In this document: positions 1 through 14,585 of the stretch, piece by piece
Numbering within the stretch: position 1 is the stretch's first letter
Layout: each line of letters opens with the position of its first letter
Virus record (IMG/VR): IMGVR_UViG_3300048589_000933
Location: 1-50,782 of that record
Strand: one strand, 5' to 3'
Length of the DNA stretch: 50,782 nt
Origin: a virus
Lineage: Duplodnaviria > Caudoviricetes
Translations under genes and position numbers: made by a program
Notes under the pieces: model-generated
The model's database searches: none
What the model saw: the letters and a program-made list of their open reading frames with translations, nothing else
What the model was told of the DNA's origin: nothing

Positions 1-44
1 CTTTCACGGTTGCGACCGGGGTTCGAATCCCCGTGGGGACGCCA
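1..44 (+). tRNA. tRNA-Glu(UUC), 3' part (5' end outside window); prophage integration target
   Basis: Anticodon loop CTTTCAC, T-arm CGGGGTTCGAATCCCCG, 3' end GGGGACGCCA (CCA at 42-44). Confidence 0.93.
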
Positions 45-1533
45 CCTTAAACCCGCTTGCCGCGTCGAGTGTGTTCAGCTCGACGCGGTAATGCAGGGTG
101 GCGTCGGTAGTCTCTGGATCCAGCTCGACCCGATCGAGCAGTGCGGCGAGCGCGTCTTTGGTGGCTTCTCTGTTGTCCGCGTCGCGCAGATCGTCGAGCA
201 GTTCGACCATGCGCCGGCGGATATCCATGTCTGTGACCTGTGCCAGTGCCATTGCGGCCTGGTAGTCGCGCTCCTGTGCGCGGATCTGCTCGACTAGGGC
301 AACGCGTTCGCGCTCGAGCTGGTCGAGCTTGCGCACGGCGGGTCCTGGGTCGGCGAGTCTGCCGGCGAGATCCACTGCGCGGCTGATGCGGTCGGTGATG
401 CTGGCCAGCTGCGGCCGCAGGGCGGCGGCGGGGTCTTCGGGAGTTTCTTCGCGGCGGGTGGCCTTGGCGAACAGGCGCACCAGGTCGGTGGTCTGCAGGT
501 CGCTATGCACCTGGGCGACGATGGCGGCCTCGAGCTCGTCGCGCGCGACACGCTTGCCGGGTACGCGGTAGTAGCCCGCGCCATCGCTGTGCCAGGCGCG
601 ACCCTGCGGCGTGAACAGCATGCCGGTCAGCAGGTAAGACGCTGGCGTGCGGCGCGGACGGGTGGCTGAGTACTCCTCGAGGTGCTTCAGGATGCGCTCG
701 GCTTCTGCGTCGGTGATTACCCCGGGGTGGGTGTCTCGCTGCATCATCCATTCGGTGCGCGGCCGCCGGCGTGTTTTGCCTGCCTGTTGCTCGCTGTGCA
801 CGTTCCAGACAGTGTGCCCGGCGTAGGTAAGGGCGTTCCATTCGACGCCGACCAGTGAGGCCTTGGCGATGCGCGGGAGGCCTGGCGCGTGCTCGATCGC
901 GCGAGCCCGGGGCAGTCCGTTGGACCTGGCACGCAGGTAAGCGCCGATCGCGGCGGCGGCGGTATCTGCAAGCTCGAGGGTGGACTTGGTGACGGGCAGG
1001 CCCTCGCGGACGATGCCGGTGTCGATCTTGCGCAGGCGGTAGCCGATCGGCGCGCGGCCGCCGGCGCGGTAGCCGTCGCGGACGTTCTGCGCCATGCCGG
1101 CGAGGCCTTTCTCGCGGCTGGTGAGGCTATGCCATTCGTCCATCGCCTGCAGGATGGACTTGAGCAGCATTTCGGTGATGGGGTCAGCCTCGGGCACGCT
1201 CTTGTAGATCACGCGTACGCCGTGTTTCTTGCACTCGACCTCTTCGAACACGATGGAGATATGCCGGCGCCGCGCCAGGCGCGAGGTATCTAGCACCAGC
1301 AGGTGATCCCAGCCGCGGCGGGGGTTGCGCAGGGCTCGCAGCAGCTGCTGGAAGCCTGGGCGGTCGGTGTCTTTGCCGGACTCGACGACGTCGGCGAAGG
1401 TTTCAGCGATCGACAGGCCTCGGGACAGGGCCAGCGCTTTCAGCTCGCGGCGCTGGACGTCGACCGACACGTCCTTTCGATCCTTCGAGCTGCGGCAGTA
1501 GATCGCCGCGCTCCCGTGTGTTTGTGTCGCCAT
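4..1533 (-). CDS. Large serine recombinase (integrase)
   Basis: N-terminal YCRSSK catalytic motif, SG..DRPGF, DTSRLAR, GGRAPIGY recombinase region, then coiled coil. Adjacent to attL; GGAG upstream of the ATG. Confidence 0.93.
   Translation of the reverse strand: MATQTHGSAAIYCRSSKDRKDVSVDVQRRELKALALSRGLSIAETFADVVESGKDTDRPGFQQLLRALRNPRRGWDHLLVLDTSRLARRRHISIVFEEVECKKHGVRVIYKSVPEADPITEMLLKSILQAMDEWHSLTSREKGLAGMAQNVRDGYRAGGRAPIGYRLRKIDTGIVREGLPVTKSTLELADTAAAAIGAYLRARSNGLPRARAIEHAPGLPRIAKASLVGVEWNALTYAGHTVWNVHSEQQAGKTRRRPRTEWMMQRDTHPGVITDAEAERILKHLEEYSATRPRRTPASYLLTGMLFTPQGRAWHSDGAGYYRVPGKRVARDELEAAIVAQVHSDLQTTDLVRLFAKATRREETPEDPAAALRPQLASITDRISRAVDLAGRLADPGPAVRKLDQLERERVALVEQIRAQERDYQAAMALAQVTDMDIRRRMVELLDDLRDADNREATKDALAALLDRVELDPETTDATLHYRVELNTLDAASGFKVASPRGFEPRSQP
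30..45 (+). repeat. attL core CCCGTGGGGACGCCAC
   Basis: Identical to 43331-43346; overlaps the tRNA acceptor end. Confidence 0.93.
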
Positions 1534-1630
1534 CGATCCGACTCCGTTCCCGCGCCCGCAGCAACGGTACCACCACCGCGACGGCGATCGCTGGGCAGGG
1601 GGCGTTCGCGCTGCGGACGCGGATAGTCAT
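1403..1630 (-). CDS. Possible small protein (75 aa) coupled to the RT stop and overlapping the integrase start
   Basis: ATG at 1630 overlaps the RT TGA (ATGA); no recognisable domain. Confidence 0.3.
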   Translation of the reverse strand: MTIRVRSANAPCPAIAVAVVVPLLRARERSRIDGDTNTRERGDLLPQLEGSKGRVGRRPAPRAESAGPVPRPVDR

Positions 1631-3423
1631 AGGGTGGCCTGGCACCGCAGCCGCACCACCCGCCCTTCCATCGCCGCCGGGAAGCGCCTCTTGGCGGTGG
1701 CTGCCGGGAGCCAGCGGAAGCGCCGCAGCAGCGTCTGCCGCAGCCTGTGGCTGTCGGCGTGGGTGAAGTGGCCCTGGTAGCTGGCCCACACAGCGCGGAC
1801 CGCGCGCAGGCCGTCTGGCGTGGCGAGAATGCGCCGGCCGCGGACGTGGGTGGTCTCCCACTTCGCCAAGGCTTCGCGTGCGTGGCTGACGATGCGGCGG
1901 CGGACGGTGGTGTGGGTGGGGCGGACGATGTACCCGAGGAAGTCGATGCCGGTGGCGAGCGGCGCCAGGCGCTGATCGGCTTTGAGCTCGAGGCGCAGCG
2001 ACTGCTGCAGGAACTGCTCGATCTGCACTCGCCAGCACTCGAGCTGGGCGCGATCGTGGTGGACGATGACGAAGTCGTCGACGTAGCGCAGGTAGCGCTT
2101 GGCCTTGAGCGTGTGCTTGACGAATTGGTCGAGCTGGTCGAGGTAGACGTTAGCGAAGAACTGGCTGCTGAGGTTGCCGATCGGGATCCCGCAGCCCGTC
2201 GGTGCGTTCTGCAGTTGCTTGTGCAGTGGCACGAGTGCGCGGCGCTCAGGTGTGGTGCGGTAGTTGACGCCGGTGCGGTCAATGGATGAACGCAGCAGCG
2301 CGTGCATGGTGCGCTGGGCCGCCAGGCTGAGACCTTCCCGGGTAGTGCGCGTCTTCAGCAGCGCGTATAGCGTGGGGCGATGGATGCGGTTGAAGAAGTT
2401 GGCCACGTCGAGCTGCAGGAACCAGCCGCCACCCTGGCCGCTGTGTACCTCTCGCACGAACTGCTGCAGGCGGCGTACGGCGGCGTGGCTGCCCTTGCCG
2501 CGGCGATTGGCAAAGCTGTCGTGGATGAATGCCGGCTCATAGATGGCCTCGATCTGCGGCACCAGCCAGTGGTGCACGACGCGGTCGCCGAAGTCTGGCG
2601 CGTGGATCTCTCGCGCCTTTGGCCGGGTCGCGATGAAGCACGTCGACGGTTGCGGCTGCCACGTGCCGGCGTTGAGCTGCTCCTGGAGTTCGATCAGGCG
2701 ATCAGCCCAACGGGCATCGAACGCGAGGCGGTTGGCACTGGGTTTCTTGCTGCGGCGCGCGGCCTTCCACGCGGCGTGCAAGTCGGTGAAGCTGACCTGG
2801 TGTTCATCACCCTGCAACTCACGGGCCGGACCGCGAACCGCGCGCACGCGGTTGTTGTTGTCGCGGTGGTTGTTGTTGGCGTTGCCGTTGTTGAAGCTCA
2901 CGATCCACGCGTAAGCGGCAGGCGACGCGTCCCCGCAGACTTGCGACCCGCTCGAGCAGCCGTGCTGGTAGCGCGAGTTCGTCATTTGTAGACCTCCCAT
3001 CGGGAGGCGGGTACTCAGTTGCTGGGCGCGCTGCACGACGGGCGCTTGCCCTTGCGCATCCTGGCCCTTGGGGTGCTGCCCGGTCAGCTGGCGGTACCAA
3101 CCGCCAGCCTGCTTACCCAGTTCGCGAGCGCTGCGGAACAGCGCTTCAAACTGCGCAAGGCTGGTGAATGCACGCAGTCGGCTGCAAAGCTGCAGCTGTA
3201 TTTTCAGCTCATCAATGGCCCACACCAGATTCCACGCATGCTCGCGTTGCCTGGGTCGATCGCGCCAAGCGCGATGGGTGAGCGTGGCGATCGCCAGGGC
3301 CTTCGCGCGCAGGTCGCTGCCTGCCGCGTACCGGTGGTAGCGCGGGAAGCGACGAACAGCCAGCTCGATATCGAGCATCAGTCGCTCGGCAAGCTGTGCG
3401 ATAGGTGGCAGCGCGAAGGTCAT
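1627..3423 (-). CDS. Avd-(TR)-reverse transcriptase in one ORF (598 aa); RT may also start at ATG 2985
   Basis: Residues ~1-113 are Avd-like four-helix bundle (RFPRYHRY..G.DLR ... ELGKQAGGW). The C-terminal part has the DGR RT motifs KAREIHAPDFGDRVVHH, GIPIGNLSSQFFAN, YLRYVDD and GIDFLGY. No stop lies between them; GGAGG precedes ATG 2985. Confidence 0.93.
   Translation of the reverse strand: MTFALPPIAQLAERLMLDIELAVRRFPRYHRYAAGSDLRAKALAIATLTHRAWRDRPRQREHAWNLVWAIDELKIQLQLCSRLRAFTSLAQFEALFRSARELGKQAGGWYRQLTGQHPKGQDAQGQAPVVQRAQQLSTRLPMGGLQMTNSRYQHGCSSGSQVCGDASPAAYAWIVSFNNGNANNNHRDNNNRVRAVRGPARELQGDEHQVSFTDLHAAWKAARRSKKPSANRLAFDARWADRLIELQEQLNAGTWQPQPSTCFIATRPKAREIHAPDFGDRVVHHWLVPQIEAIYEPAFIHDSFANRRGKGSHAAVRRLQQFVREVHSGQGGGWFLQLDVANFFNRIHRPTLYALLKTRTTREGLSLAAQRTMHALLRSSIDRTGVNYRTTPERRALVPLHKQLQNAPTGCGIPIGNLSSQFFANVYLDQLDQFVKHTLKAKRYLRYVDDFVIVHHDRAQLECWRVQIEQFLQQSLRLELKADQRLAPLATGIDFLGYIVRPTHTTVRRRIVSHAREALAKWETTHVRGRRILATPDGLRAVRAVWASYQGHFTHADSHRLRQTLLRRFRWLPAATAKRRFPAAMEGRVVRLRCQATL
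2821..2929 (-). repeat. DGR template repeat (TR), ~109 bp
   Basis: Nine AAC codons and 23 adenines on the coding strand; aligns without gaps to VR1 and VR2. Confidence 0.96.
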
Positions 3424-3442
3424 GGGAGAGCGTCAGAAAGGC

Positions 3443-3955
3443 CTAGAACTGACGGGCCGGACCGCGAACCGCGCGCACGCGGTTGTAGCCGTCGCGGTGG
3501 AAGCCGCTGGCGCTGCCGCTGCCGAAGCACACGAGCCACGCGAAAGCGGCAGGCGACGGCGCGTAGGGCGTGCCGGTCCAGTACCACTCGGACTTGCACG
3601 CGGGGAACGCCTCGGTGTCGATGGCGGGCTCGTGCCGGGTGTCGTCGACCAGCGTGAGCAGCTCGGTGCGTGTCGGCAGGCGCCAGTCGTCGTGCCCGCC
3701 CAAGCGTAGCGCGCGACAGGCGGCCTCGGCGGCCGCCCAGGGCACAGCCTTGGCGGTGGTGTCTTCCTGCGACCACTGCAGGCCGGTGTGCGTGTCGGTG
3801 ACGATGCCATCTGCCGCCTGGAATCGATCGGCGGTTGGGTCGTTGACGGCATGAACTGCAGTCGGCGCCGTCAGCGCAAACGGACGAAGCTCTGCGAGGG
3901 CCGCGAGTGCTGTGATCAAGGTGTCGTCATCGCAGCGCAGGGTAAGTTCGAGCAT
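3443..3955 (-). CDS. DGR target 1: DUF1566/Lcl-type C-lectin-fold protein (170 aa)
   Basis: VTDTHTGLQW, W..A.AAC, DWRLPT..EL, YWTGT, RVRAVRG motifs; VR at the C-terminus; AGGAG upstream. Confidence 0.92.
   Translation of the reverse strand: MLELTLRCDDDTLITALAALAELRPFALTAPTAVHAVNDPTADRFQAADGIVTDTHTGLQWSQEDTTAKAVPWAAAEAACRALRLGGHDDWRLPTRTELLTLVDDTRHEPAIDTEAFPACKSEWYWTGTPYAPSPAAFAWLVCFGSGSASGFHRDGYNRVRAVRGPARQF
3452..3558 (-). repeat. Variable repeat VR1
   Basis: 107-bp gapless match to TR 2821-2927 with 15 mismatches, all at TR adenines. Confidence 0.96.
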
Positions 3956-3986
3956 GGTGATCTCCTGGAGAAAAGCTCAGAAAGGC

Positions 3987-4418
3987 CTAGGACTGACGGG
4001 CCGGACCGCGAACCGCGCGCACGCGGCCGCTGCCGTCGCGGTGGCTGTCGCGGGCGTAGCCGCCGTAGAAGCTCACGACCCACGCGTAAGCGGCAGGCGA
4101 CGCGGCGTAGGGTGTGGCAGTCCAGTACCAGTCCGACTTGCACGTTGGGAACGCGGCGGTGTCGATCGTGGGCTTGGCGCGCGTTCTGTCGGCAAGCGGG
4201 AACAGTTCCTCGACGGTGGGCAGTCGCCAGTCGGTATGTCCGGCAAACGCCTGGGCGTTCAGTGCAGCGATTGCCGCCTCGGCTTCTGAGTGGTCGACAT
4301 CAGCGTCGACGGCGTCGTCGCGCGTCCACTGCAAGCCGGTGGTGGTGTCGGTGACGACGAGCTGGTCGGATGAGACGGAGAAGCGTGAGGCGGTTACGTT
4401 TGCGGCTTGTGCGTTCAT
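3987..4418 (-). CDS. DGR target 2: DUF1566/Lcl-type protein (143 aa; alternative in-frame start 4535)
   Basis: Paralog of target 1 (VTDTTTGLQW, DWRLPTVEEL, YWTAT, RVRAVRG); GAGGA upstream of ATG 4418. Confidence 0.92.
   Translation of the reverse strand: MNAQAANVTASRFSVSSDQLVVTDTTTGLQWTRDDAVDADVDHSEAEAAIAALNAQAFAGHTDWRLPTVEELFPLADRTRAKPTIDTAAFPTCKSDWYWTATPYAASPAAYAWVVSFYGGYARDSHRDGSGRVRAVRGPARQS
3996..4104 (-). repeat. Variable repeat VR2
   Basis: 109-bp gapless match to TR 2821-2929 with 14 mismatches, all at TR adenines. Confidence 0.96.
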
Positions 4419-4531
4419 GTGGGATTCCTCGAGTGGTGTTGGGCTACGGGTAACGCGTCTTGCGTCATCGTCGGCATGCCGCTGCCGGCGCAGGGCTCGC
4501 CGCTCCGGCGTGTCGCCGCTGATGTCGGTGC

Positions 4532-6508
4532 TCATTTGGCGGGCTTCTTTGCCGCTGCCTTTTTCGCGGCGGTCTTCGCGGCGGCTGGCTTGGCCTTGAG
4601 CTTGGGGGCGTTTTTGCGTAGCGCGTAGCCCGGGCGGCGCAGGGGCTTGGGCAGCCAGCCGCTGCGGCGGGTGAGCTCCTCGGCTTTGCCGGCGAGTTCG
4701 GCTTTCTTGAGGCCGGTGAGCTGGGCAGCGACGGTCTTGCCGCACACCTCGGCAACGGCTTCGATGGCGAGGGCGGCGGGCACCAGGCTGAAGAACGTCT
4801 CGGCGGTGGGCTGCCAGTGGTCGGCCATGTTCAGGTCGAGGGCGTCTGCGATGGCGACGGCGCCGAAGGAGGTGCCGCCGCCGCGCATGACGGCGTCGAG
4901 CGTCATCACGGGCACGCTGGCCAGCAGGCCGACGACGGTGTCGCGGGTTTGCTCGAGCAGCCAGGGCAGCAGGCCGGCACGAGTGCCAGGCACGTGCAGG
5001 GTGTAGCGCATGTCCTCGAGGGCTTGCGCGGTTTGGGTGAGATCGGGGTTGGCGTCGAGGTCGGCGAAACCGAGCTTGTGCAGCTCACGGGTGGCGCTTT
5101 CGGCCTTCACCTGGATGGGCAGATCGCCGCCGAATTGAGGCGGATAGATCAACGGCACGAGCAAGGTGTAGGCGAGCGTGGCGAGCGCTACGTCGGCGCG
5201 CTTGAGCAGCTCGGCCTGCAGGGCAACAGTGCGGTGGGCACTGAGGCGGCGCAGCATGCTTTCGGCCAGCGTGGGCGCGGGCTTGGGGGCGGGTGTGCCG
5301 TCTTCGGTTTGAGTGGCGGCGGCGGCCTGGCGCGCGGCTTGCGGGGTTTCGGCGATGAGGCCGCGGGTGATCTCGAGCGTGCCGCTGTGGCCGAGCTTGA
5401 CGCAGGCGCCGGCTTTGGCCTTTTGGCGGTCTGACCACACTTCTGCCGTGGCGCTGAGTTCCTTGATGCGGGCGGTGATCAGTTCGCGCTCGTCGTAGGC
5501 GGCCTCGAAGTCGAAATCGCCCGCTTCTTCGGCCTCCTCGGCTTGCGTCAGTTCGTCATCGAGCTGCATCGCGCGGGCTTCGAGCTGCTGCAGCTCGGCC
5601 TTGGCATCGTCACTTAGCTCGCTGCGCCTTGGCTGGCTGCGGTTGAACTTGTAGACGAAGCTGTGATCGTCGTAGTCCAGCAGCTTGACCCAGCTCCATC
5701 CCTCAGCGCGCAGGGCTTCGGCGGCGGCTTCTAGCTTCTCTGTGCCCAGACGGTCGAGCAGGTCGATATCGGCGACGTAGCCGGCGCCAGGCTCGAAGAG
5801 GTCGCGCACCACGGCGCCGCCCGCGGCTTCGTAGGCGGCGAGGCCCACGAAGACCACGCGCCGGTCACTGCTGTGCACGTGCTTCTCGGTGAGGGCCTCG
5901 CGCAGGCGGCGCGGCTCACGCGCCCAGGGTTGCCGACCATCGGGGCCCCACGCGCGCTCCTGGGCGGCGTGGTCGTCGGTGATGGCGAGGGCCATCAGCT
6001 GCTCGAGGGTGGCCTTGTCTTCGCGGAAGAGCCGCAGCAGCACGGGCGAGAGGTTGGCCAAGCGCAGGCGGCGTTCGACGACAAGCGGCGACACGCCGAA
6101 GCGGGCGGCGATAGTGTCGACGCCCATGCCCTCGGCGGCCAAGTCGCGAAAGGCCACGAACTCGTCATGCGGGTGCATGCGCTCGCGCACGGTGTTCTCG
6201 GCCGTGCTGGCTTCGAGCACGCGGCTGGTATCGGTTTCGATGAGGCAGGGGATGCCGTCGGCCAGCTCGGGCGGCAGTCGGTCTTGCTGGGCCAGCAGCT
6301 TGAGGGCGGCGAGGCGGCGGCCGCCGGCGATGACGCCGAAGCCGCCCATCGACTTGGGCGATGGCTCCACGATGAGGTTTTGCAGCAGGCCGAGCGCGGC
6401 GATGTTGGCGGCGAGGCCTTCGACATCCTTGCCGCCGGTGCGGCGGGCATTGTGCGTCGAGAGGTGGAGGTCGGAGAGCGGAATCAGCGTGGCGCTTGCG
6501 TTGGACAT
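4532..6508 (-). CDS. Long ParB/Spo0J-family protein with Lys/Ala-rich C-terminal tail
   Basis: LAANI..LGLLQNLIV, VIAGGRRLAAL, EN..RE.MHP.DE, HTH IAARFGVS...V.RRLRLA; ends KAKPAAAKTAAKKAAAKKPAK. Confidence 0.88.
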   Translation of the reverse strand: MSNASATLIPLSDLHLSTHNARRTGGKDVEGLAANIAALGLLQNLIVEPSPKSMGGFGVIAGGRRLAALKLLAQQDRLPPELADGIPCLIETDTSRVLEASTAENTVRERMHPHDEFVAFRDLAAEGMGVDTIAARFGVSPLVVERRLRLANLSPVLLRLFREDKATLEQLMALAITDDHAAQERAWGPDGRQPWAREPRRLREALTEKHVHSSDRRVVFVGLAAYEAAGGAVVRDLFEPGAGYVADIDLLDRLGTEKLEAAAEALRAEGWSWVKLLDYDDHSFVYKFNRSQPRRSELSDDAKAELQQLEARAMQLDDELTQAEEAEEAGDFDFEAAYDERELITARIKELSATAEVWSDRQKAKAGACVKLGHSGTLEITRGLIAETPQAARQAAAATQTEDGTPAPKPAPTLAESMLRRLSAHRTVALQAELLKRADVALATLAYTLLVPLIYPPQFGGDLPIQVKAESATRELHKLGFADLDANPDLTQTAQALEDMRYTLHVPGTRAGLLPWLLEQTRDTVVGLLASVPVMTLDAVMRGGGTSFGAVAIADALDLNMADHWQPTAETFFSLVPAALAIEAVAEVCGKTVAAQLTGLKKAELAGKAEELTRRSGWLPKPLRRPGYALRKNAPKLKAKPAAAKTAAKKAAAKKPAK

Positions 6509-9474: not shown

Positions 9475-10092
9475 CTAGTTGCAGTTCGTGTGCGCAAGCG
9501 CAATCACGTCTTCGGAGACTCGCAGGGAGCGTAATGCCTGCCATAGCTCGAGCAGCGTGGCTGTTGATTCGGCGTTGATTGATCCATCAGACATCACCCC
9601 GCACGTCATGTGCAAAGCCTCGAATCCGCCCATCCTGTTGCGGGCTCGAATCTCGATGCCTAGATGAATGTCGTCTCTTCGGCGGGCCCATGCCGAGGAG
9701 ACAACGTACGCGCTGCGCGGGTCAAGCAAAAGTGGCCGGTACGCGTCGAGGCACTTCTCGGCAGAATTGGCCGGAACGGGCTCTGGGATGGTGCAGAAGG
9801 GGGCATTGTTCTCAGCGTAGCGGCCTTCGCGCTCAGTCTCTTCCGCCACCGATTGCTGCGCCTCCTGTTCAGAGGTGCAGTGCTTGCGCCATATGCCATC
9901 GGGGCACTTGTAGTGGGTGCCACCAGGCGGCTTGTAGGACCAACTCTTGGGGTCTACTTCGTACCGCCTGTCGGTGTCTGAGCAAGACGCTAGTGGCACT
10001 CGGGCGCCATCACGGAAGCAACGAATCTCCGCGCCAACTAAAGATCCTGAAGCAATGAGCAGCGATAGGGTGAGGGCAGAAACATGCGACAT
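9475..10092 (-). CDS. Exported Cys-rich protein downstream of cI (lysogen-expressed accessory gene candidate)
   Basis: Signal-peptide-like N-terminus, several Cys, lower GC, AGGAG RBS right after the cI stop. Confidence 0.65.
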   Translation of the reverse strand: MSHVSALTLSLLIASGSLVGAEIRCFRDGARVPLASCSDTDRRYEVDPKSWSYKPPGGTHYKCPDGIWRKHCTSEQEAQQSVAEETEREGRYAENNAPFCTIPEPVPANSAEKCLDAYRPLLLDPRSAYVVSSAWARRRDDIHLGIEIRARNRMGGFEALHMTCGVMSDGSINAESTATLLELWQALRSLRVSEDVIALAHTNCN

Positions 10093-10106
10093 GTGGGCTC
10101 CTGACG

Positions 10107-10886
10107 CTAACGAAAGAGGCCGCCTGATCCCGACCGGTCGATGACTTGTCCAAACAATGCAACCCGATCTCCAATGGCATCCGCCTCGACAAAGATGTCT
10201 GGGTAGGCCTGCTTGTCACTGTTCTCGCTGACGATACGATAGCCACCACCGTGCCGGAAGATGTACTTGACGACTACTTCGCCGTCCAACGCGAAGGCAT
10301 ACATGTTGCCGCTGCGGATCTGGGTTTCCTCCAGCGTGAAGTGGACCGCGATCTTGTCGCCATCGAAGAGCACGCGCTCCATGCTGGCGCCGTTGACGCG
10401 CATCACTCTGACATTCTCAGGCTTGGCACCGAAGCGCCGAAACCAATCGCGCTGGAAGGGCATGCGGTACTTGGTCTCCACGTACTCCGGCGACCATTGT
10501 CCCGGCCCCGCGCCAGCGACCATGTCTACGAACGGCACAAGTGATTCGGTCATTTGGTCGACGTCGCCGTCCCCATCGATGGCACGCACGGCATATGCGT
10601 GAAGCGGTTCTTGAATTTGCTTCGCACTGGCGGCCGCTTCGGTGCCATCGCGCGGGGCGAAGAATTTTGGCTCTCGGCCCGAATTGAGCCATGTCCCGCG
10701 GTAGCCAGTCTCCGACTCATAAGCGGCGAGCAGCTTCCCTCCAAGCTGTTGGGTCTTCCCGCCTTCGATCAAGTAGATCGCCTGGGCTGTGACTTTCAGT
10801 CGTCTGGCAAACGCCGCAACGTTTCGTTCGCCAGTTGATAGGCGCGCTTCGGTGGCTCGTTCTGCAAGCGTTGACATGTAAGCCAT
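10107..10886 (-). CDS. cI: CI-like repressor (HTH + S24 peptidase)
   Basis: HTH AAFARRLKVTAQAIYLIEGG, AG cleavage site, V.GASME catalytic Ser, VVKY Lys; divergent from cro. Confidence 0.9.
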   Translation of the reverse strand: MAYMSTLAERATEARLSTGERNVAAFARRLKVTAQAIYLIEGGKTQQLGGKLLAAYESETGYRGTWLNSGREPKFFAPRDGTEAAASAKQIQEPLHAYAVRAIDGDGDVDQMTESLVPFVDMVAGAGPGQWSPEYVETKYRMPFQRDWFRRFGAKPENVRVMRVNGASMERVLFDGDKIAVHFTLEETQIRSGNMYAFALDGEVVVKYIFRHGGGYRIVSENSDKQAYPDIFVEADAIGDRVALFGQVIDRSGSGGLFR

Positions 10887-10939
10887 TTTACAATCTTGGC
10901 GTGTAAGTGGGCTTGCTATAAGGGCAAAGTCTGCTTACA
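10877..10939. promoter_or_regulatory. OR-like operators (3 sites)
   Basis: TGTAAG-CCAT-TTTACA (10877-10892), TGTAAG-TGGG-CTTGCT (10902-10917), GCAAAG-TCTG-CTTACA (10924-10939). Confidence 0.75.
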
Positions 10940-10950
10940 CTCCTGCAGCA

Positions 10951-11202
10951 ATGACGCCGACCATCGACAAGAAGCAAGCTCTGGATGCCTACGCCGGCAA
11001 CGCAAGTGCGCTCGCTCGCGCGCTGCAGATCACGCCTCAAGCGATCTACCAGTGGCCTGACGGGCCAATTCTCGAGTTGCACGCCCTGAAGCTTTGGTTT
11101 GTTCTGCGTCCCGAGTACTTCCAGTCGCTGGCCGCTAAGGCCTCGGCGGCTGCAGAGGGCGAACCCACCCCAGACCGCGCCGATAGCGCGCAGGCGGCTT
11201 GA
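10951..11202 (+). CDS. cro: Cro-like HTH regulator
   Basis: ALARALQITPQAIYQW HTH, divergent from cI. Confidence 0.88.
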   Translation: MTPTIDKKQALDAYAGNASALARALQITPQAIYQWPDGPILELHALKLWFVLRPEYFQSLAAKASAAAEGEPTPDRADSAQAA

Positions 11203-11469
11203 ATGCTCAATCCAGCTTACAAGCCCGCAAGCATGCGTTCGGTGGGTATGCCTCCCGCGCATCCCGATGTGGTGGGGCTTTCGCTCAGTTGCGGCACGGA
11301 CTGCCCCGCCGATGCCATGCGCTTTCACTTCACGCGGGAGGAAGCCGAGCGCTTGGCGTTGGCCTTGCTCGATGCGGTCTCCATTCAGCGCTATCGAGTG
11401 GCCCAGTCGTCTATCTGCTCGGGCAAGCCAAATTGCGACGGGTCGCCACAATCGGGCCATGCGCAATGA
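11203..11469 (+). CDS. Module 1 forward ORF, hypothetical
   Basis: ATG immediately after the cro stop and repeat 1. Confidence 0.5.
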   Translation: MLNPAYKPASMRSVGMPPAHPDVVGLSLSCGTDCPADAMRFHFTREEAERLALALLDAVSIQRYRVAQSSICSGKPNCDGSPQSGHAQ

Positions 11470-11606
11470 CCGCCGGCCAAGTCGTCCAGCGCGTGCTGAG
11501 CCGTGTGAAACGGGCCGTCGAAACAATCGTCGCCGTGCCAGAGCATCCATCCGCGCGGCTCTCGCACGATTCGGAAAACGCCGGCGCGGGTGTTGTGCCA
11601 GTACAT
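11391..11606 (-). CDS. Module 1 reverse ORF, hypothetical (71 aa, MYWHNTRAG...)
   Basis: GGAGG RBS; globular, Trp/Gly/Asp-rich protein-like sequence. Confidence 0.7.
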   Translation of the reverse strand: MYWHNTRAGVFRIVREPRGWMLWHGDDCFDGPFHTAQHALDDLAGGHCAWPDCGDPSQFGLPEQIDDWATR

Positions 11607-11696
11607 GGACGCCTCCGTCATGCGGACTGATTCGCACCGCGAAGCATATCGCGAGCCCCACACCCCAGACCGCGCCAATAGCGCGCAGGTGGCGTG

Positions 11697-11930
11697 ATGG
11701 CCATGTACATCGAGGACCTTTCGCCCAGTGAGCTTGAGTCCGTCGGCATGGACGTCCAAAGCCACGGCACGGTGGTGGCGTACGCCTACACCCTGAAGCA
11801 CGGGTTGGCAGTGTCGCCCTCGCAGCACAGGCAGCTGATGGTGATGCACCGATCGCTGGGAAGAATGCTGACCGACGCCGAGTTCGCGTCAGTCGTTGGC
11901 ACCGAGGGTGGTGACGATGCGCACCACTGA
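11697..11930 (+). CDS. Module 2 forward ORF, hypothetical
   Basis: Start 7 nt after repeat 2 (AGGTGG RBS-like). Confidence 0.55.
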   Translation: MAMYIEDLSPSELESVGMDVQSHGTVVAYAYTLKHGLAVSPSQHRQLMVMHRSLGRMLTDAEFASVVGTEGGDDAHH

Positions 11931-12080
11931 CCCGCGCTTTGGTTTCCGCTTGCGGCCGCTGGTGTATGCGCGGATGGCGATGAGCGCCTCGGGCCTGGTA
12001 ACCGGCCGGTACGCACAGATCTCGTACGTCACGCCTGTTTGCGGGTCGCGAAGTGTGGCCTGTACCGATGGCATGTCCAT
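11889..12080 (-). CDS. Module 2 reverse ORF, small basic protein (63 aa)
   Basis: MDMPSVQATLRDPQTGVTYEICAYR...; protein-like; TACGAT -10-like element upstream, next to repeat 3. Confidence 0.65.
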   Translation of the reverse strand: MDMPSVQATLRDPQTGVTYEICAYRPVTRPEALIAIRAYTSGRKRKPKRGSVVRIVTTLGAND

Positions 12081-12151
12081 GCAGATTGGTCCGCTGGACG
12101 GTGCCCGAATCGTAACCCCAGACCGCGCCGATAGCGCGCAGGAGACCCGTG

Positions 12152-12349
12152 ATGCCGCGTGAACACTCATCGCCAGAGGGCATCGATGCTGCACTGCTCG
12201 AGCACGAGATCGAAGCGCTGGCGACGCTCGCGCTGTCTGTCCTGCAGACCCGTGGCTGCAGTGCGGCAGAGGCTTCGGCAGAAGCCGCAGTGATACGGCG
12301 CTCTGCCCGCGGCGATGCTGCGGCTATTTTGTCTCGTACGCCTGCTTGA
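12152..12349 (+). CDS. Module 3 forward ORF, hypothetical helical protein
   Basis: CAGGAG RBS formed at the end of repeat 3. Confidence 0.55.
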   Translation: MPREHSSPEGIDAALLEHEIEALATLALSVLQTRGCSAAEASAEAAVIRRSARGDAAAILSRTPA

Positions 12350-12485
12350 CCGCCGCTCGAATGTCCTTGAATGCCGCGGTGATCTCTTGGAGGTTCCCAG
12401 TGCCTGATGTGCTGCGTGCGATGGCTTTGGCCTGCAAGGCAGCGATCAGGATCTCGGATGCAATCTCTTCGAAGGACTTGCTCAC
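12324..12485 (-). CDS. Module 3 reverse ORF, two-helix protein (53 aa)
   Basis: GGAG plus GTG start; EIASEILIAALQ...EITAAFKDIRAAV amphipathic helices. Confidence 0.65.
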   Translation of the reverse strand: MSKSFEEIASEILIAALQAKAIARSTSGTGNLQEITAAFKDIRAAVKQAYETK

Positions 12486-12656
12486 GTCGGTCTCCGGTGG
12501 TGGCGATGGTGGGGTAGCACTCCCATTCTGCCACCGGCAGGCCGACCCCTTCAGCTTGGCATGCGTGATTCCACCGGCGGCAGGGATGATGACGGCTGTC
12601 CATGTGGGCAGGTTGATGCGTTTGCATAGCAGCGTCATCGTTCATGTGGTGCCCGC

Positions 12657-13109
12657 GTGAACGTTCTCGACGCCGCGCACCGCACGGTCCACGCCTACCC
12701 GGGCGGCAGTGAGTCACTGGGCCCGCGCATCGGCATCGTGCCTGCGGTGCTGCGCTCCAAGGTCAACCCGAACTGCCACAGCCACCGCCTGGCGATTGAC
12801 GAGGCGGACCTGATCATGGGCGCCACGGGTGACCTGTCCATCCTGCAGGCGCTCGCGGCCAACCATGGCTGCACGCTGCAGCGCATCGACGGTTCTGCAC
12901 CCGGGTCGCTGTTCGGCGCGCACCTGGCTAGCACCGGTGCCTCGGGTGATTTGGCCGGTGTTTTAGCTGCGGCGCTCGCCGATGGTCGGGTGTCTGCCAA
13001 CGAGGCCGCCACGATCTCGCGCGCCGGGGCCGCACTGCAGGCCGCGATCGTGCACCTGGTGTCGCTGGCCTACGCCGATGCGGTGCAGTCGAGGGCCAAG
13101 CCCGCATGA
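12657..13109 (+). CDS. CII-family phage regulatory protein (Phage_CP76-like)
   Basis: AAHRTVHAYPGGSESL...LRSKVNPN..H.L motif; C-terminal ADGRVS.NE. Confidence 0.85.
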   Translation: MNVLDAAHRTVHAYPGGSESLGPRIGIVPAVLRSKVNPNCHSHRLAIDEADLIMGATGDLSILQALAANHGCTLQRIDGSAPGSLFGAHLASTGASGDLAGVLAAALADGRVSANEAATISRAGAALQAAIVHLVSLAYADAVQSRAKPA

Positions 13110-13303
13110 AGCGCAAGGCCCGGCCAGGCGTCAATCCGTTGGCGGACCCGCGCCGGGCACGATATGTGCGGGCCGCGCTGGATCGCCGCCGAGTGTCGGA
13201 TGAGCAATTGGCGCTGGCGCGACTGCGTGCCGATCCGGAGCGGCAAGCGCAAGCGGTTTCGCGCGTGAAGGGGCTGCTGGCGATGCTGGGTGATTCGACG
13301 TGA
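13106..13303 (+). CDS. Hypothetical phage protein
   Basis: ATGA-coupled. Confidence 0.6.
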   Translation: MKRKARPGVNPLADPRRARYVRAALDRRRVSDEQLALARLRADPERQAQAVSRVKGLLAMLGDST

Positions 13304-13539
13304 GCGTGAGCCACTGCATGCACCGTGCGCTGGAGATAGCGCGCACGCCTGTCGATACCTGGGGTGCGCAGATCGCTGATCTGCCAGAAGGCTGCACGCA
13401 CTCGGATTGCGGTGCGCCGCGCAGCTGCCGTGAGCGCATTGCTGAGTACATGCGTATGCAGTGGCGCATTGAGCAACACCAGGCGCTGCGACGGGAAGAG
13501 ATCGCCAAGGTGGCGGCAGCGAAAAGGGCGTTTGCGTGA
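13300..13539 (+). CDS. Hypothetical protein, possible Zn-binding
   Basis: GTGA-coupled; Cys/His cluster. Confidence 0.6.
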   Translation: MSVSHCMHRALEIARTPVDTWGAQIADLPEGCTHSDCGAPRSCRERIAEYMRMQWRIEQHQALRREEIAKVAAAKRAFA

Positions 13540-14585
13540 GCGATCGTCCGAAAATCGATGTGGATGGAATCAAGGCGCGCGCCGATATTGTCGAGGTGGT
13601 GCAGAGGTATGTGCCACTGAGGAAGGCTGGCAAAGACTGGGTTGGGTTGTGCCCGTTCCACAGTGAGAACTCGCGCAGCTTCACTGTGAGTGAGAAGGGG
13701 TTCGTGCACTGCTTTGGGTGCGGGGCTCACTACGATGTGATCGGGTTCATTCAGGCGATCACTGGCGCGACGTTCGTTGATGCGTGCCGGCAGCTGGGCG
13801 CCGAGGAATTCGGCGAGGCGCGGGCGATCGTGCGGCGCGAGCTGTCGCAGGTGCCTGATGTTCGCTGGGTGCCGATACTGCCGGTGCCAGGTCACGCGCT
13901 TGAGTTGATGGCGGATGAGTCGCGCACAGTGCCGGTGCACAACCCGGGTTCGGGAAAAACATGCGCATGGCGGCCTGAACGAGTTGATGCGTATCGCGAT
14001 GCGCGCGGCGCATTGCTGGGTTACGTGCTGCGCCTTGTGCTGCCAGCGAAGGACGGCAAGAAAGCGGGTAAGTGGACGCCGATGGTGACGTGGTGTGTGG
14101 GGCCTGATGGTGCGCAGCAGTGGTGTCTGCAGGCCTTCCCGGAGCCGCGCCCTATGTGCGGCCTTGACGCGTTGGCGGCAATGCCCTGGGCGCCTGCGCT
14201 GGTGGTGGAGGGCGAAAAGTGCCGCGCGGCTGGCGCTGGCGCGCAGGATCAATACGCCGTGATGACCTGGCCGGGTGGAAGCAACGGCATCGCCAAGGTG
14301 GATTGGTCGCCACTGCATGGTCGTGACGTGGTGTTGTGGCCGGATGCTGACCCCTCCGGGGTGGCGGCGATGATGGGGAAGTCGAATCTGACGGGGTTGG
14401 TTTCACCTGGCGTCGCGCAGCTGGTGGCGCGCGCGGGTGCGCGATCTATCCGAATCATCGATACGAGCGGCCAGCCGAAGGGCTGGGACATAGCGGATGC
14501 GTTGCAGGTGGACCTTTGGACGTGGCCTCAGCTGGCTGCATGGGCGGCCGCGCGGGTCGCTGATGTGCGCGTGGTGCGGGCATGA
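13536..14585 (+). CDS. DNA primase (CHC2 zinc finger + TOPRIM)
   Basis: GLCPFHSE...HCFGCG; VVEGEK; LWPDAD..G; GWDIAD. Confidence 0.9.
   Translation: MSDRPKIDVDGIKARADIVEVVQRYVPLRKAGKDWVGLCPFHSENSRSFTVSEKGFVHCFGCGAHYDVIGFIQAITGATFVDACRQLGAEEFGEARAIVRRELSQVPDVRWVPILPVPGHALELMADESRTVPVHNPGSGKTCAWRPERVDAYRDARGALLGYVLRLVLPAKDGKKAGKWTPMVTWCVGPDGAQQWCLQAFPEPRPMCGLDALAAMPWAPALVVEGEKCRAAGAGAQDQYAVMTWPGGSNGIAKVDWSPLHGRDVVLWPDADPSGVAAMMGKSNLTGLVSPGVAQLVARAGARSIRIIDTSGQPKGWDIADALQVDLWTWPQLAAWAAARVADVRVVRA

Follow-up and report, generated by a model that had tools for sequence, protein, structure and literature searches.

Organization of the cro–cII interval

In the virus record IMGVR_UViG_3300048589_000933, a stretch of 50,782 nucleotides (nt) assigned to the Caudoviricetes, we observed an array of three small two-gene modules between a cro-like gene and a CP76-type cII, each headed by one copy of a 28-nt direct repeat (Table 1). 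The window analyzed here is the entire record, and negative results for the repeat in the window cover the whole phage. We refer to the forward open reading frames (ORFs) as F1 to F3, to the reverse ORFs as R1 to R3 and to each Fn/Rn pair as module n; loci used for comparison carry the prefix L. A gene for a cI/S24-type repressor lies divergent from cro.

The repeat, ACCCCAGACCGCGCC(G/A)ATAGCGCGCAGG, begins at 11167, 11662 and 12115, always on the plus strand, with 0, 1 and 0 mismatches in the three copies and spacings of 495 and 453 nt. None of 100 shuffles gave any match, and a fourth copy, sought across all 50,782 nt, was not found. An earlier note on this DNA had proposed these copies and spacings, the forward ORFs that follow them at 11203, 11697 and 12152 and a repeat end resembling a ribosome-binding site, and our analysis confirms each of these points: the AGG at the repeat end lies 8, 7 and 9 nt ahead of the ATG codons of F1, F2 and F3, respectively. 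The convergent genes overlap at their 3′ ends by 79 nt (F1/R1), 42 nt (F2/R2) and 26 nt (F3/R3), just as that note had claimed, and its description of modules alike in architecture and not in sequence also holds, the 28–29-nt repeat being all that they have in common at the DNA or the protein level.

Table 1. Features of the array and its flanks, with the junction-copy pairs of related prophages
Feature	Position	Strand	Evidence and remarks
cI-type repressor (helix-turn-helix + S24 peptidase)	10107–10886	−	Peptidase_S24 E 1.5e-19; phrog_4 E 6.7e-32
cro-like gene	10951–11202	+	P22_Cro E 7.7e-7 (below Pfam cut-off); phrog_409 E 7e-8; phrog_35; C-terminus ...EGEPTPDRADSAQAA, stop
Junction copy 1	11157–11202	+	cro tail; 28-mer 11167–11194; AGG; stop TGA 11200–11202, then F1 ATG
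F1, 88 amino acids (aa)	11203–11469	+	homologues in L018 (48%, E 4e-23), L023 (41%, E 1.6e-15), L038
R1, 71 aa, conserved small phage protein	11391–11606	−	phrog_13590 E 1.1e-18, whole length; GGAGG 5 nt before ATG
Junction copy 2	11650–11699	+	orphan cro-tail fragment ...REPHTPDRANSAQVA, stop; 28-mer 11662–11689; TGATG stop/start with F2
F2, 77 aa	11697–11930	+	L043 homologue 42% over full length, E 2.4e-15, same end
R2, 63 aa, conserved small protein	11889–12080	−	homologues of same length
Junction copy 3	12115–12154	+	28-mer 12115–12142 identical to copy 1; then AGGAG, GTGATG with F3 start; in frame ...IVTPDRADSAQETRDAA, stop
F3, 65 aa, ORFan	12152–12349	+	called in source record
Terminator-like hairpin + T run, in F3/R3 overlap, upstream of cII	12307–12333	+	terminator scan
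R3, 53 aa, ORFan	12324–12485	−	GTG start 12485; GGAG 6 nt upstream
cII (CP76 type)	12657–13109	+	Phage_CP76 E 3.5e-32; phrog_101
Junction-copy pairs in relatives	L018 3876/4350; L023 742/1393; L038 1515/2122

The repeat is a cro tail joined to a translation junction

Copy 1 of the repeat is the last 12 codons of cro. Translated in the cro frame, copies 1, 2 and 3 read EGEPTPDRADSAQAA, REPHTPDRANSAQVA and IVTPDRADSAQETRDAA, each followed by a stop, and copies 2 and 3 are thus still open in frame as Cro-like C-termini. To the right of the 28-mer come the AGG, which resembles a Shine-Dalgarno (SD) sequence, and then a stop/start overlap or junction, TGAATG for F1 and TGATG for both F2 and F3. Because copy 1 lies within cro and the copies combine a Cro-frame reading with AGG and stop/start, the repeat is the 3′ coding end of cro together with a Shine-Dalgarno and stop/start junction to the next gene, and copies 2 and 3 are orphan duplicates of it. 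This identity is a point absent from the earlier note.

The three copies differ in how far they resemble one another. Copies 1 and 2 resemble each other over about 50 nt. Immediately to the left of the 28-mer, copy 2 differs by a 3-nt indel of one whole codon (CAC) and by a GAA/GAG change, as would be expected if the two were what is left of related cro alleles. Copies 1 and 3 are identical at 28 of 28 positions, and their similarity is lost abruptly on both flanks. Counting the relatives discussed below, the distance between junction copies is a multiple of three in four of five cases (495, 453, 474 and 651 nt, the 607 nt of L038 being the exception), and R1, R2 and R3 all lie in one reverse frame. 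This regularity of spacing and frame may be chance (p ~0.045 if frames are random).

The hairpin inside the repeat, which the earlier note had treated as a special feature, does not stand out. Its CGCGC-N5-GCGCG dyad is present in all three copies, but these are one sequence, so that the stem counts as a single observation. The dyad pattern occurs eight times in the window against 4.9 expected, a number reached in 12 of 100 shuffles, and in 13.5% of all 28-nt segments of this GC-rich genome 5 bp or more pair perfectly around a loop of 3–8 nt. The folding energy of the 28-mer (−7.8 kcal/mol) is ordinary beside the genome mean of −6.6 kcal/mol, and the 66-nt contexts of the repeats fold no better than shuffles on either strand (z −1.69 to +0.82). 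A search of Rfam gave nothing at the repeats and one sub-threshold match away from them. The hairpin within the repeat is unremarkable and not beyond chance.

Modules 1 and 2 recur in other prophages

We fetched 17 loci by way of the neighboring VapE-type gene, to which theirs are 49–71% identical. Most are from Xanthomonas, Stenotrophomonas, Lysobacteraceae, Pseudoxanthomonas, Rhodanobacter and Frateuria, and four are metagenome-assembled genomes labeled Anaerolinea, Azohydromonas or Proteobacteria; these taxa indicate a Xanthomonadales-type host. The convergent overlapping pair F1/R1 is present in four other prophages (L018, L023, L038 and L011), two of which, L018 and L023, are among the 17 VapE loci. 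The similarity of F1 in L011 is weak (25%, E 0.01). In L023 and L011, as in the window, the pair stands directly behind cro. The F2/R2 pair was found in one of 251 family genomes (L043); there too a Cro-like gene immediately precedes it, the junction is TGATG and the overlap is again 42 nt. The R2 homologue there matches at 67% (E 2e-27), and DNA similarity between L043 and the window stops at the R2 start codon. Modules 1 and 2 are genuine conserved two-gene units. In loci L014 and L015 we also observed an R1-like domain as the N terminus of a 188-aa protein (L015, 1215–1781), encoded in reverse downstream of a Cro-like gene.

All six ORFs gave positive log-likelihood ratios (LLRs) in a codon-usage test trained on the long genes of the phage, and the F1 tail and the antisense shadow ORF of R3 gave negative ones; the shadow ORF of R2 scored +0.034, below R2 itself (+0.098). 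The conserved domain of F1 spans approximately residues 1–66 and ends about where R1 ends, and in the alignment the position of the stop varies between phages. Its last 26 codons, antisense to R1, are unconserved and have an LLR of −0.204 as against +0.086 for the non-overlapping part; from the alignment and codon usage, the overlap appears to be a run-on of F1 into R1 antisense sequence that is not conserved. R1 has four homologues among 5.8 billion clusters, and R2 has two (68% and 65%), each of 63 aa with identical start and end. One match to R1 has 73% identity. The AF2 models of the two proteins have pLDDT values of 87.2 (R1) and 88.6 (R2). Neither gave a Foldseek match in the PDB at E ≤0.001. 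The Atlas neighbors of R1 are phage or hypothetical proteins of ~75 aa (TM 0.82–0.89), and for R1 and R2 alike the Atlas neighbors are just unnamed small-protein clusters. We sought a conserved promoter upstream of the R1 homologues and found none. Prediction of an F1+R1 complex gave a score of 0.02, which counts neither for nor against binding. R2 is not among the called proteins of the source record under any of five starts tried. F2 has GC contents of 0.64, 0.41 and 0.82 at the three codon positions, and a word-based search of 5.8 billion clusters gave no match to it.

F3 is the weakest gene call of the six. Its LLR is +0.085 to +0.091 and its GC by codon position 0.73/0.61/0.59, and it had no match in the family libraries or the fetched loci, to which the search was confined. 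For R3, the source record called a 104-aa form starting at 12638 (R3long); the LLR is +0.141 for 12324–12485 and −0.004 for 12486–12638, and an exhaustive phmmer search of 1.84 billion representatives found no credible homologue of R3long. Compared with known toxin, antitoxin and defense families, the six ORFs gave no PADLOC and no Pfam match, and the sole PHROGs match was that of R1 to phrog_13590. Exact copies of the F1, R1 and F2 proteins are on two contigs in a large collection, and those of Cro, F3, R3long and five other phage proteins on one. The second contig with F1, R1 and F2 is probably a short contig from another assembly.

Module exchange at a sister junction in Xanthomonas prophages

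In three Xanthomonas prophages (L018, L024 and L038) we observed a sister junction of 21 nt, CGC(A/G)GGAGGTGGCCTGATGTC. In L018 one copy lies at the 3′ end of cro and a second immediately precedes F1, and the two bracket another convergent overlapping pair, Fa (3892–4107) and Ra (4007–4261). L024 has a single copy, followed immediately by a phrog_20477 gene that in L018 lies behind two modules. The order in L038 is junction, a different module, a junction-like copy, F1/R1 and the phrog_20477 gene, and similarity between L018 and L038 breaks off at the first junction copy and returns at the second. A diverged junction pair is present in L023 (23 of 33 positions, with 0.02 expected). The Xanthomonas junction is common to five positions with differing flanks, and its 19-mer occurs in three of 41 genomes of that genus. 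It consists of SD/stop/start sequence, without any hairpin, and copy 2 of the window matches it at 84% over 25 nt. These comparisons indicate that phages of this group insert, stack and replace two-gene modules at the cro-distal junction, with junction duplicates at the borders. In an unrelated phage, L004, whose cII is 38% identical, another gene-boundary repeat, ATGGAGGTGATGAATGGAA, occurs in three copies 259–274 nt apart (2655–3206), which hints that SD/stop/start junction repeats may be more widespread.

The 28-mer of the window itself was not found in any relative. A 25-nt pattern gave no match in viral contigs or in genome contigs; a looser 19-mer had one match in the viral contigs (L017), which lies inside a coding region with unrelated flanks and was set aside as chance. 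Allowing up to three mismatches, the 28-mer was absent from all five related genomes, and allowing up to six it was absent from all 17 VapE-linked loci. One match among 401 family genomes was rejected, as it sits inside a 709-aa chromosomal ORF. Queries of the viral contigs with R1, F2 and cI turned up no close relatives, and a query with cII gave only loci at 28–38% identity; isolated phages contained no tblastn match to R1, F2, cro or F1. The earlier proposal of a cassette-swapping or expanding locus with the repeat as its recombination junction is upheld in part: modules 1 and 2 are conserved units, and among L018, L024 and L038 the modules bracketed by the sister junction are present, missing or exchanged precisely between its copies, but no relative was found that carries the 28-mer itself.

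Origin of the array

We propose, with a probability of roughly 0.6, that recombination at boundary sequences stacked cro-proximal cassettes in this phage and left behind duplicates of the cro tail, which now serve as ribosome-binding sites of the forward genes. In related prophages such modules stand singly, immediately behind cro. Here three of them would have been stacked when related phages recombined at, or close to, a short boundary sequence that they share, each added module having brought in, or left behind, one copy of the cro tail. The resulting direct repeats would now supply the Shine-Dalgarno sequences of F1–F3 and would remain sites at which homologous recombination could add, remove or exchange modules. 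From their position, the F genes would be read from pR, as part of the pR operon, and the R genes leftward toward cI, either from promoters of their own or from a CII-dependent establishment promoter near cII. We regard three elements of this account as established by the sequence comparisons: that the repeat is the cro tail, that the pairs of modules 1 and 2 are conserved, and that sister prophages have modules inserted or replaced between their junction copies.

Several observations weigh against this proposal. As no relative with the 28-mer was found, the comparative support stems from a sister junction of different sequence, and the best-conserved part of the two differs: in the window it lies upstream of the SD/stop/start, whereas in the Xanthomonas junction it is the SD/stop/start itself. 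A passive remnant of a third cro allele might be thought to differ somewhat from the first, and copies 1 and 3 are fully identical with sharp borders; this pattern is also compatible with selection on the 28-mer or with gene conversion. Unlike replacement, stacking calls for a joint that is unequal or illegitimate, or for a circular intermediate, and we saw none of these. Module 3, being without homologues, lends no support as a traveling unit, and in the phage we identified no recombinase gene besides that of the large serine integrase. A more far-reaching version, in which the cro-tail junction is an active cassette-capture site particular to one group of Xanthomonadales temperate phages, strikes us as rather improbable. 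There, F/R pairs would be gained, lost or swapped as units, possibly via circles, and would act as sense/antisense switches (F from lytic pR, R leftward with cI while lysogeny is established or maintained) tuning the lysis–lysogeny decision, or as antidote/toxin-like or defense pairs.

The identity of copies 1 and 3 and their sharp borders are also what one would expect if the 28-mer were a selected cis-element, either an RNA hairpin or translational operator for F1–F3 or a DNA site for a dimeric protein with half-sites 10 bp apart. All copies have the same orientation and a similar distance (7–9 nt) to three unrelated start codons, the sole variable position falls in the loop, and there is a likeness to the start-associated sequences described for Cluster K phages (PMC3203893). 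We nevertheless consider this explanation, the strongest of the rivals, unlikely. A stem that 13.5% of random 28-nt segments match and an ordinary folding energy do not mark an element under selection; there are only three copies, with no covariation and no Rfam family; the sequence turned up neither in the 401 family genomes nor in the collections scanned; and the sister junction repeats are free of hairpins. By eye, the cI–cro intergenic region shows no similar dyad, which makes CI and Cro unlikely binders.

Direct repeats with an internal dyad that bound each module, in a phage that encodes a serine recombinase, might also suggest a dedicated site-specific cassette system of an integron-like or invertase/resolvase-like kind. 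The only recombinase identified, however, is the large serine integrase (509 aa), encoded at the extreme left; there is neither an integron-type integrase nor an attI/attC-like structure, and the repeat is cro coding sequence while the sister junctions are SD/stop/start sequences, so we hold such a system to be very improbable. Even less probable, in our estimation, is a role of the copies as nut-like antitermination sites of the pR operon. The repeat hairpin, with its 5-bp stem and 5-nt loop, has the geometry of the boxB hairpins of lambda and P22, and it lies between cro and cII ahead of the terminator-like site at 12307–12333. Yet the repeat loops, CGAUA and CAAUA, are not GNRA-like, which counts against such a role; all copies are on the plus strand between cro and cII, with none on the leftward strand or operon, no N-like family match was found among the leftward genes, three tandem sites would be unusual, and copy 1 is coding sequence. 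Assembly is a further concern, in that the record is a metagenome-derived virus contig and F1, R1 and F2 are also on a second contig, as if population variants had been chained through the shared 28-mer. Such an artifact is hardly credible: to the left of copies 2 and 3 the sequence is not that found left of copy 1, so that a de Bruijn path taken through other modules would fail to lead back to the repeat, and analogous stacked arrangements are present in the isolate genomes L018 and L038.

Comparison with known systems

The earlier note had recognized no described system in this locus, a view that finds no support, as lambdoid boundary sequences (PMC3029335) and the PeSL cassettes of T4-type phages (PMC2839356) embody the same idea. 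PMC3029335 cites short boundary sequences at lambdoid module junctions (Susskind & Botstein 1978; Clark et al. 2001) and states that they can rarely be seen at real mosaic joints. As described there, they are like the present repeats in being short gene-boundary sequences common to otherwise unrelated flanks and proposed to mediate homologous module exchange; they are unlike them in that the repeats here are cro tail plus translation junction and stand as direct repeats in one genome, bracketing stacked convergent pairs. The modules of the window share 28–29 nt between unrelated flanks, the Xanthomonas junction does so at five positions, and module content differs exactly at the common sequence for the sister junction in L018, L024 and L038. 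By analogy, the locus would work like lambdoid boundary-sequence exchange.

PeSL cassettes (Arbiol et al. 2010; PMC2839356) are repeated short intergenic cassettes that end in a Shine-Dalgarno sequence and start codon. They are described as flanking ORFan genes in plastic regions, with modules shuffled by recombination between them, much as here, and the circle PCR put forward in the earlier note parallels the mini-circles they report. Here, too, all three copies end in an SD and start codon (AGG 7–9 nt before ATG). A PeSL as characterized there has, in addition, a strong sigma-70 promoter and a terminator stem-loop, whereas no promoter-like site lies at our repeats, and these are coding sequence of the upstream gene. 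Their 5-bp stem, at −7.8 kcal/mol and with no T run, is absent from the terminator scan. Being without promoter or terminator, the locus falls outside the PeSL definition.

The start-associated sequences (SAS) of Cluster K mycobacteriophages and their ESAS form number 93 sites throughout the non-structural half and are conserved across the Cluster K genomes (PMC3203893). SAS are portrayed there as an asymmetric, single-orientation repeat with an SD core, a few nt before the starts of unrelated non-structural genes, to which the ESAS form adds an inverted repeat; in these respects the two arrangements are alike. Unlike SAS, the present repeat has three copies within 1 kb (11167–12142) and none found in the other genomes scanned. 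Lacking many conserved copies, it does not fit the SAS definition. A literature search for cro–cII module arrays of this sort found nothing specific, although the search was limited and is not proof of absence.

More distant comparisons can be drawn with morons, with lambda oop and with integrons. Morons, as reportedly set out by Juhala and colleagues in 2000, are said to be independent accessory units inserted between phage genes. Like them, the modules are small accessory genes of atypical composition inserted in an operon, some in opposite orientation; unlike them, they come as pairs whose 3′ ends overlap, with a duplicated junction at the head, and we identified no promoter or terminator for the reverse genes. 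In the comparable convergent antisense arrangement of lambda cII and oop, a leftward transcript extends over the 3′ end of a rightward early gene in the vicinity of cII. The array differs in that its leftward partners, R1 and R2 at least, are protein-coding genes. Integron attC sites are ~57–141 bp long and, with attI, belong to an IntI-type tyrosine integrase, whereas the only recombinase identified in the phage is of the serine type and its repeat is a 28–50-nt piece of the cro coding region.

That phages become mosaic through homologous exchange at short boundary sequences was proposed long ago, and the locus and its Xanthomonas sisters offer a legible case. The boundary here is the cro tail and its translation junction, the exchanged units are defined, and single, stacked and replaced states are visible in natural genomes. 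At least two conserved convergent gene pairs with overlapping 3′ ends, F1/R1 and F2/R2, are thereby defined, and their place at the heart of the lysis–lysogeny control region makes them candidates for regulators or lysogen-expressed accessory functions. The repeats also provide simple PCR handles for cassette turnover.

Flanking genes and other features of the phage

GC content at third codon positions (GC3) is 0.67–0.73 in the array region, compared with 0.80–0.88 in most other phage genes. A promoter consensus scan of 10000–13600 gave two promoter-like sites, neither of them at any repeat copy. In the region of the cII start (12300–12800), a search for CII sites found no exact 7–8-nt direct repeats at 9–23-nt spacing. 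The terminator-like hairpin in the F3/R3 overlap is a possible tR1 analogue by its position; the evidence for a terminator is weak because three such sites occur in the scanned region, with 2.3 expected.

Antisense to cro and the whole array runs a 609-aa open frame (10888–12717, minus strand), which reads LRAIGAVWG three times and is non-coding by codon statistics (LLR −0.237). L018 has a similar long antisense frame (4327–6351). Directly downstream of cI, a 205-aa ORF on the minus strand (9475–10092) has a hydrophobic N terminus, a low GC3 of 0.67 and no family match; it may encode a lysogen-expressed accessory protein.

At the left end of the record, the gene for the large serine recombinase (4–1533, minus strand; 509 aa, Resolvase and Recombinase domains) presumably encodes the phage integrase. 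Next to it, at 1627–4745, lies a diversity-generating retroelement with a reverse transcriptase ORF (1627–3423, minus strand) whose N-terminal part is bAvd-like. Its template repeat is at 2811–2927, and its variable repeats, at 3442–3558 and 3986–4102, lie at the 3′ ends of two Lcl_C-domain genes. The mismatches between template and variable repeats fall at template adenines in 15 of 18 and 14 of 18 cases for the two variable repeats.

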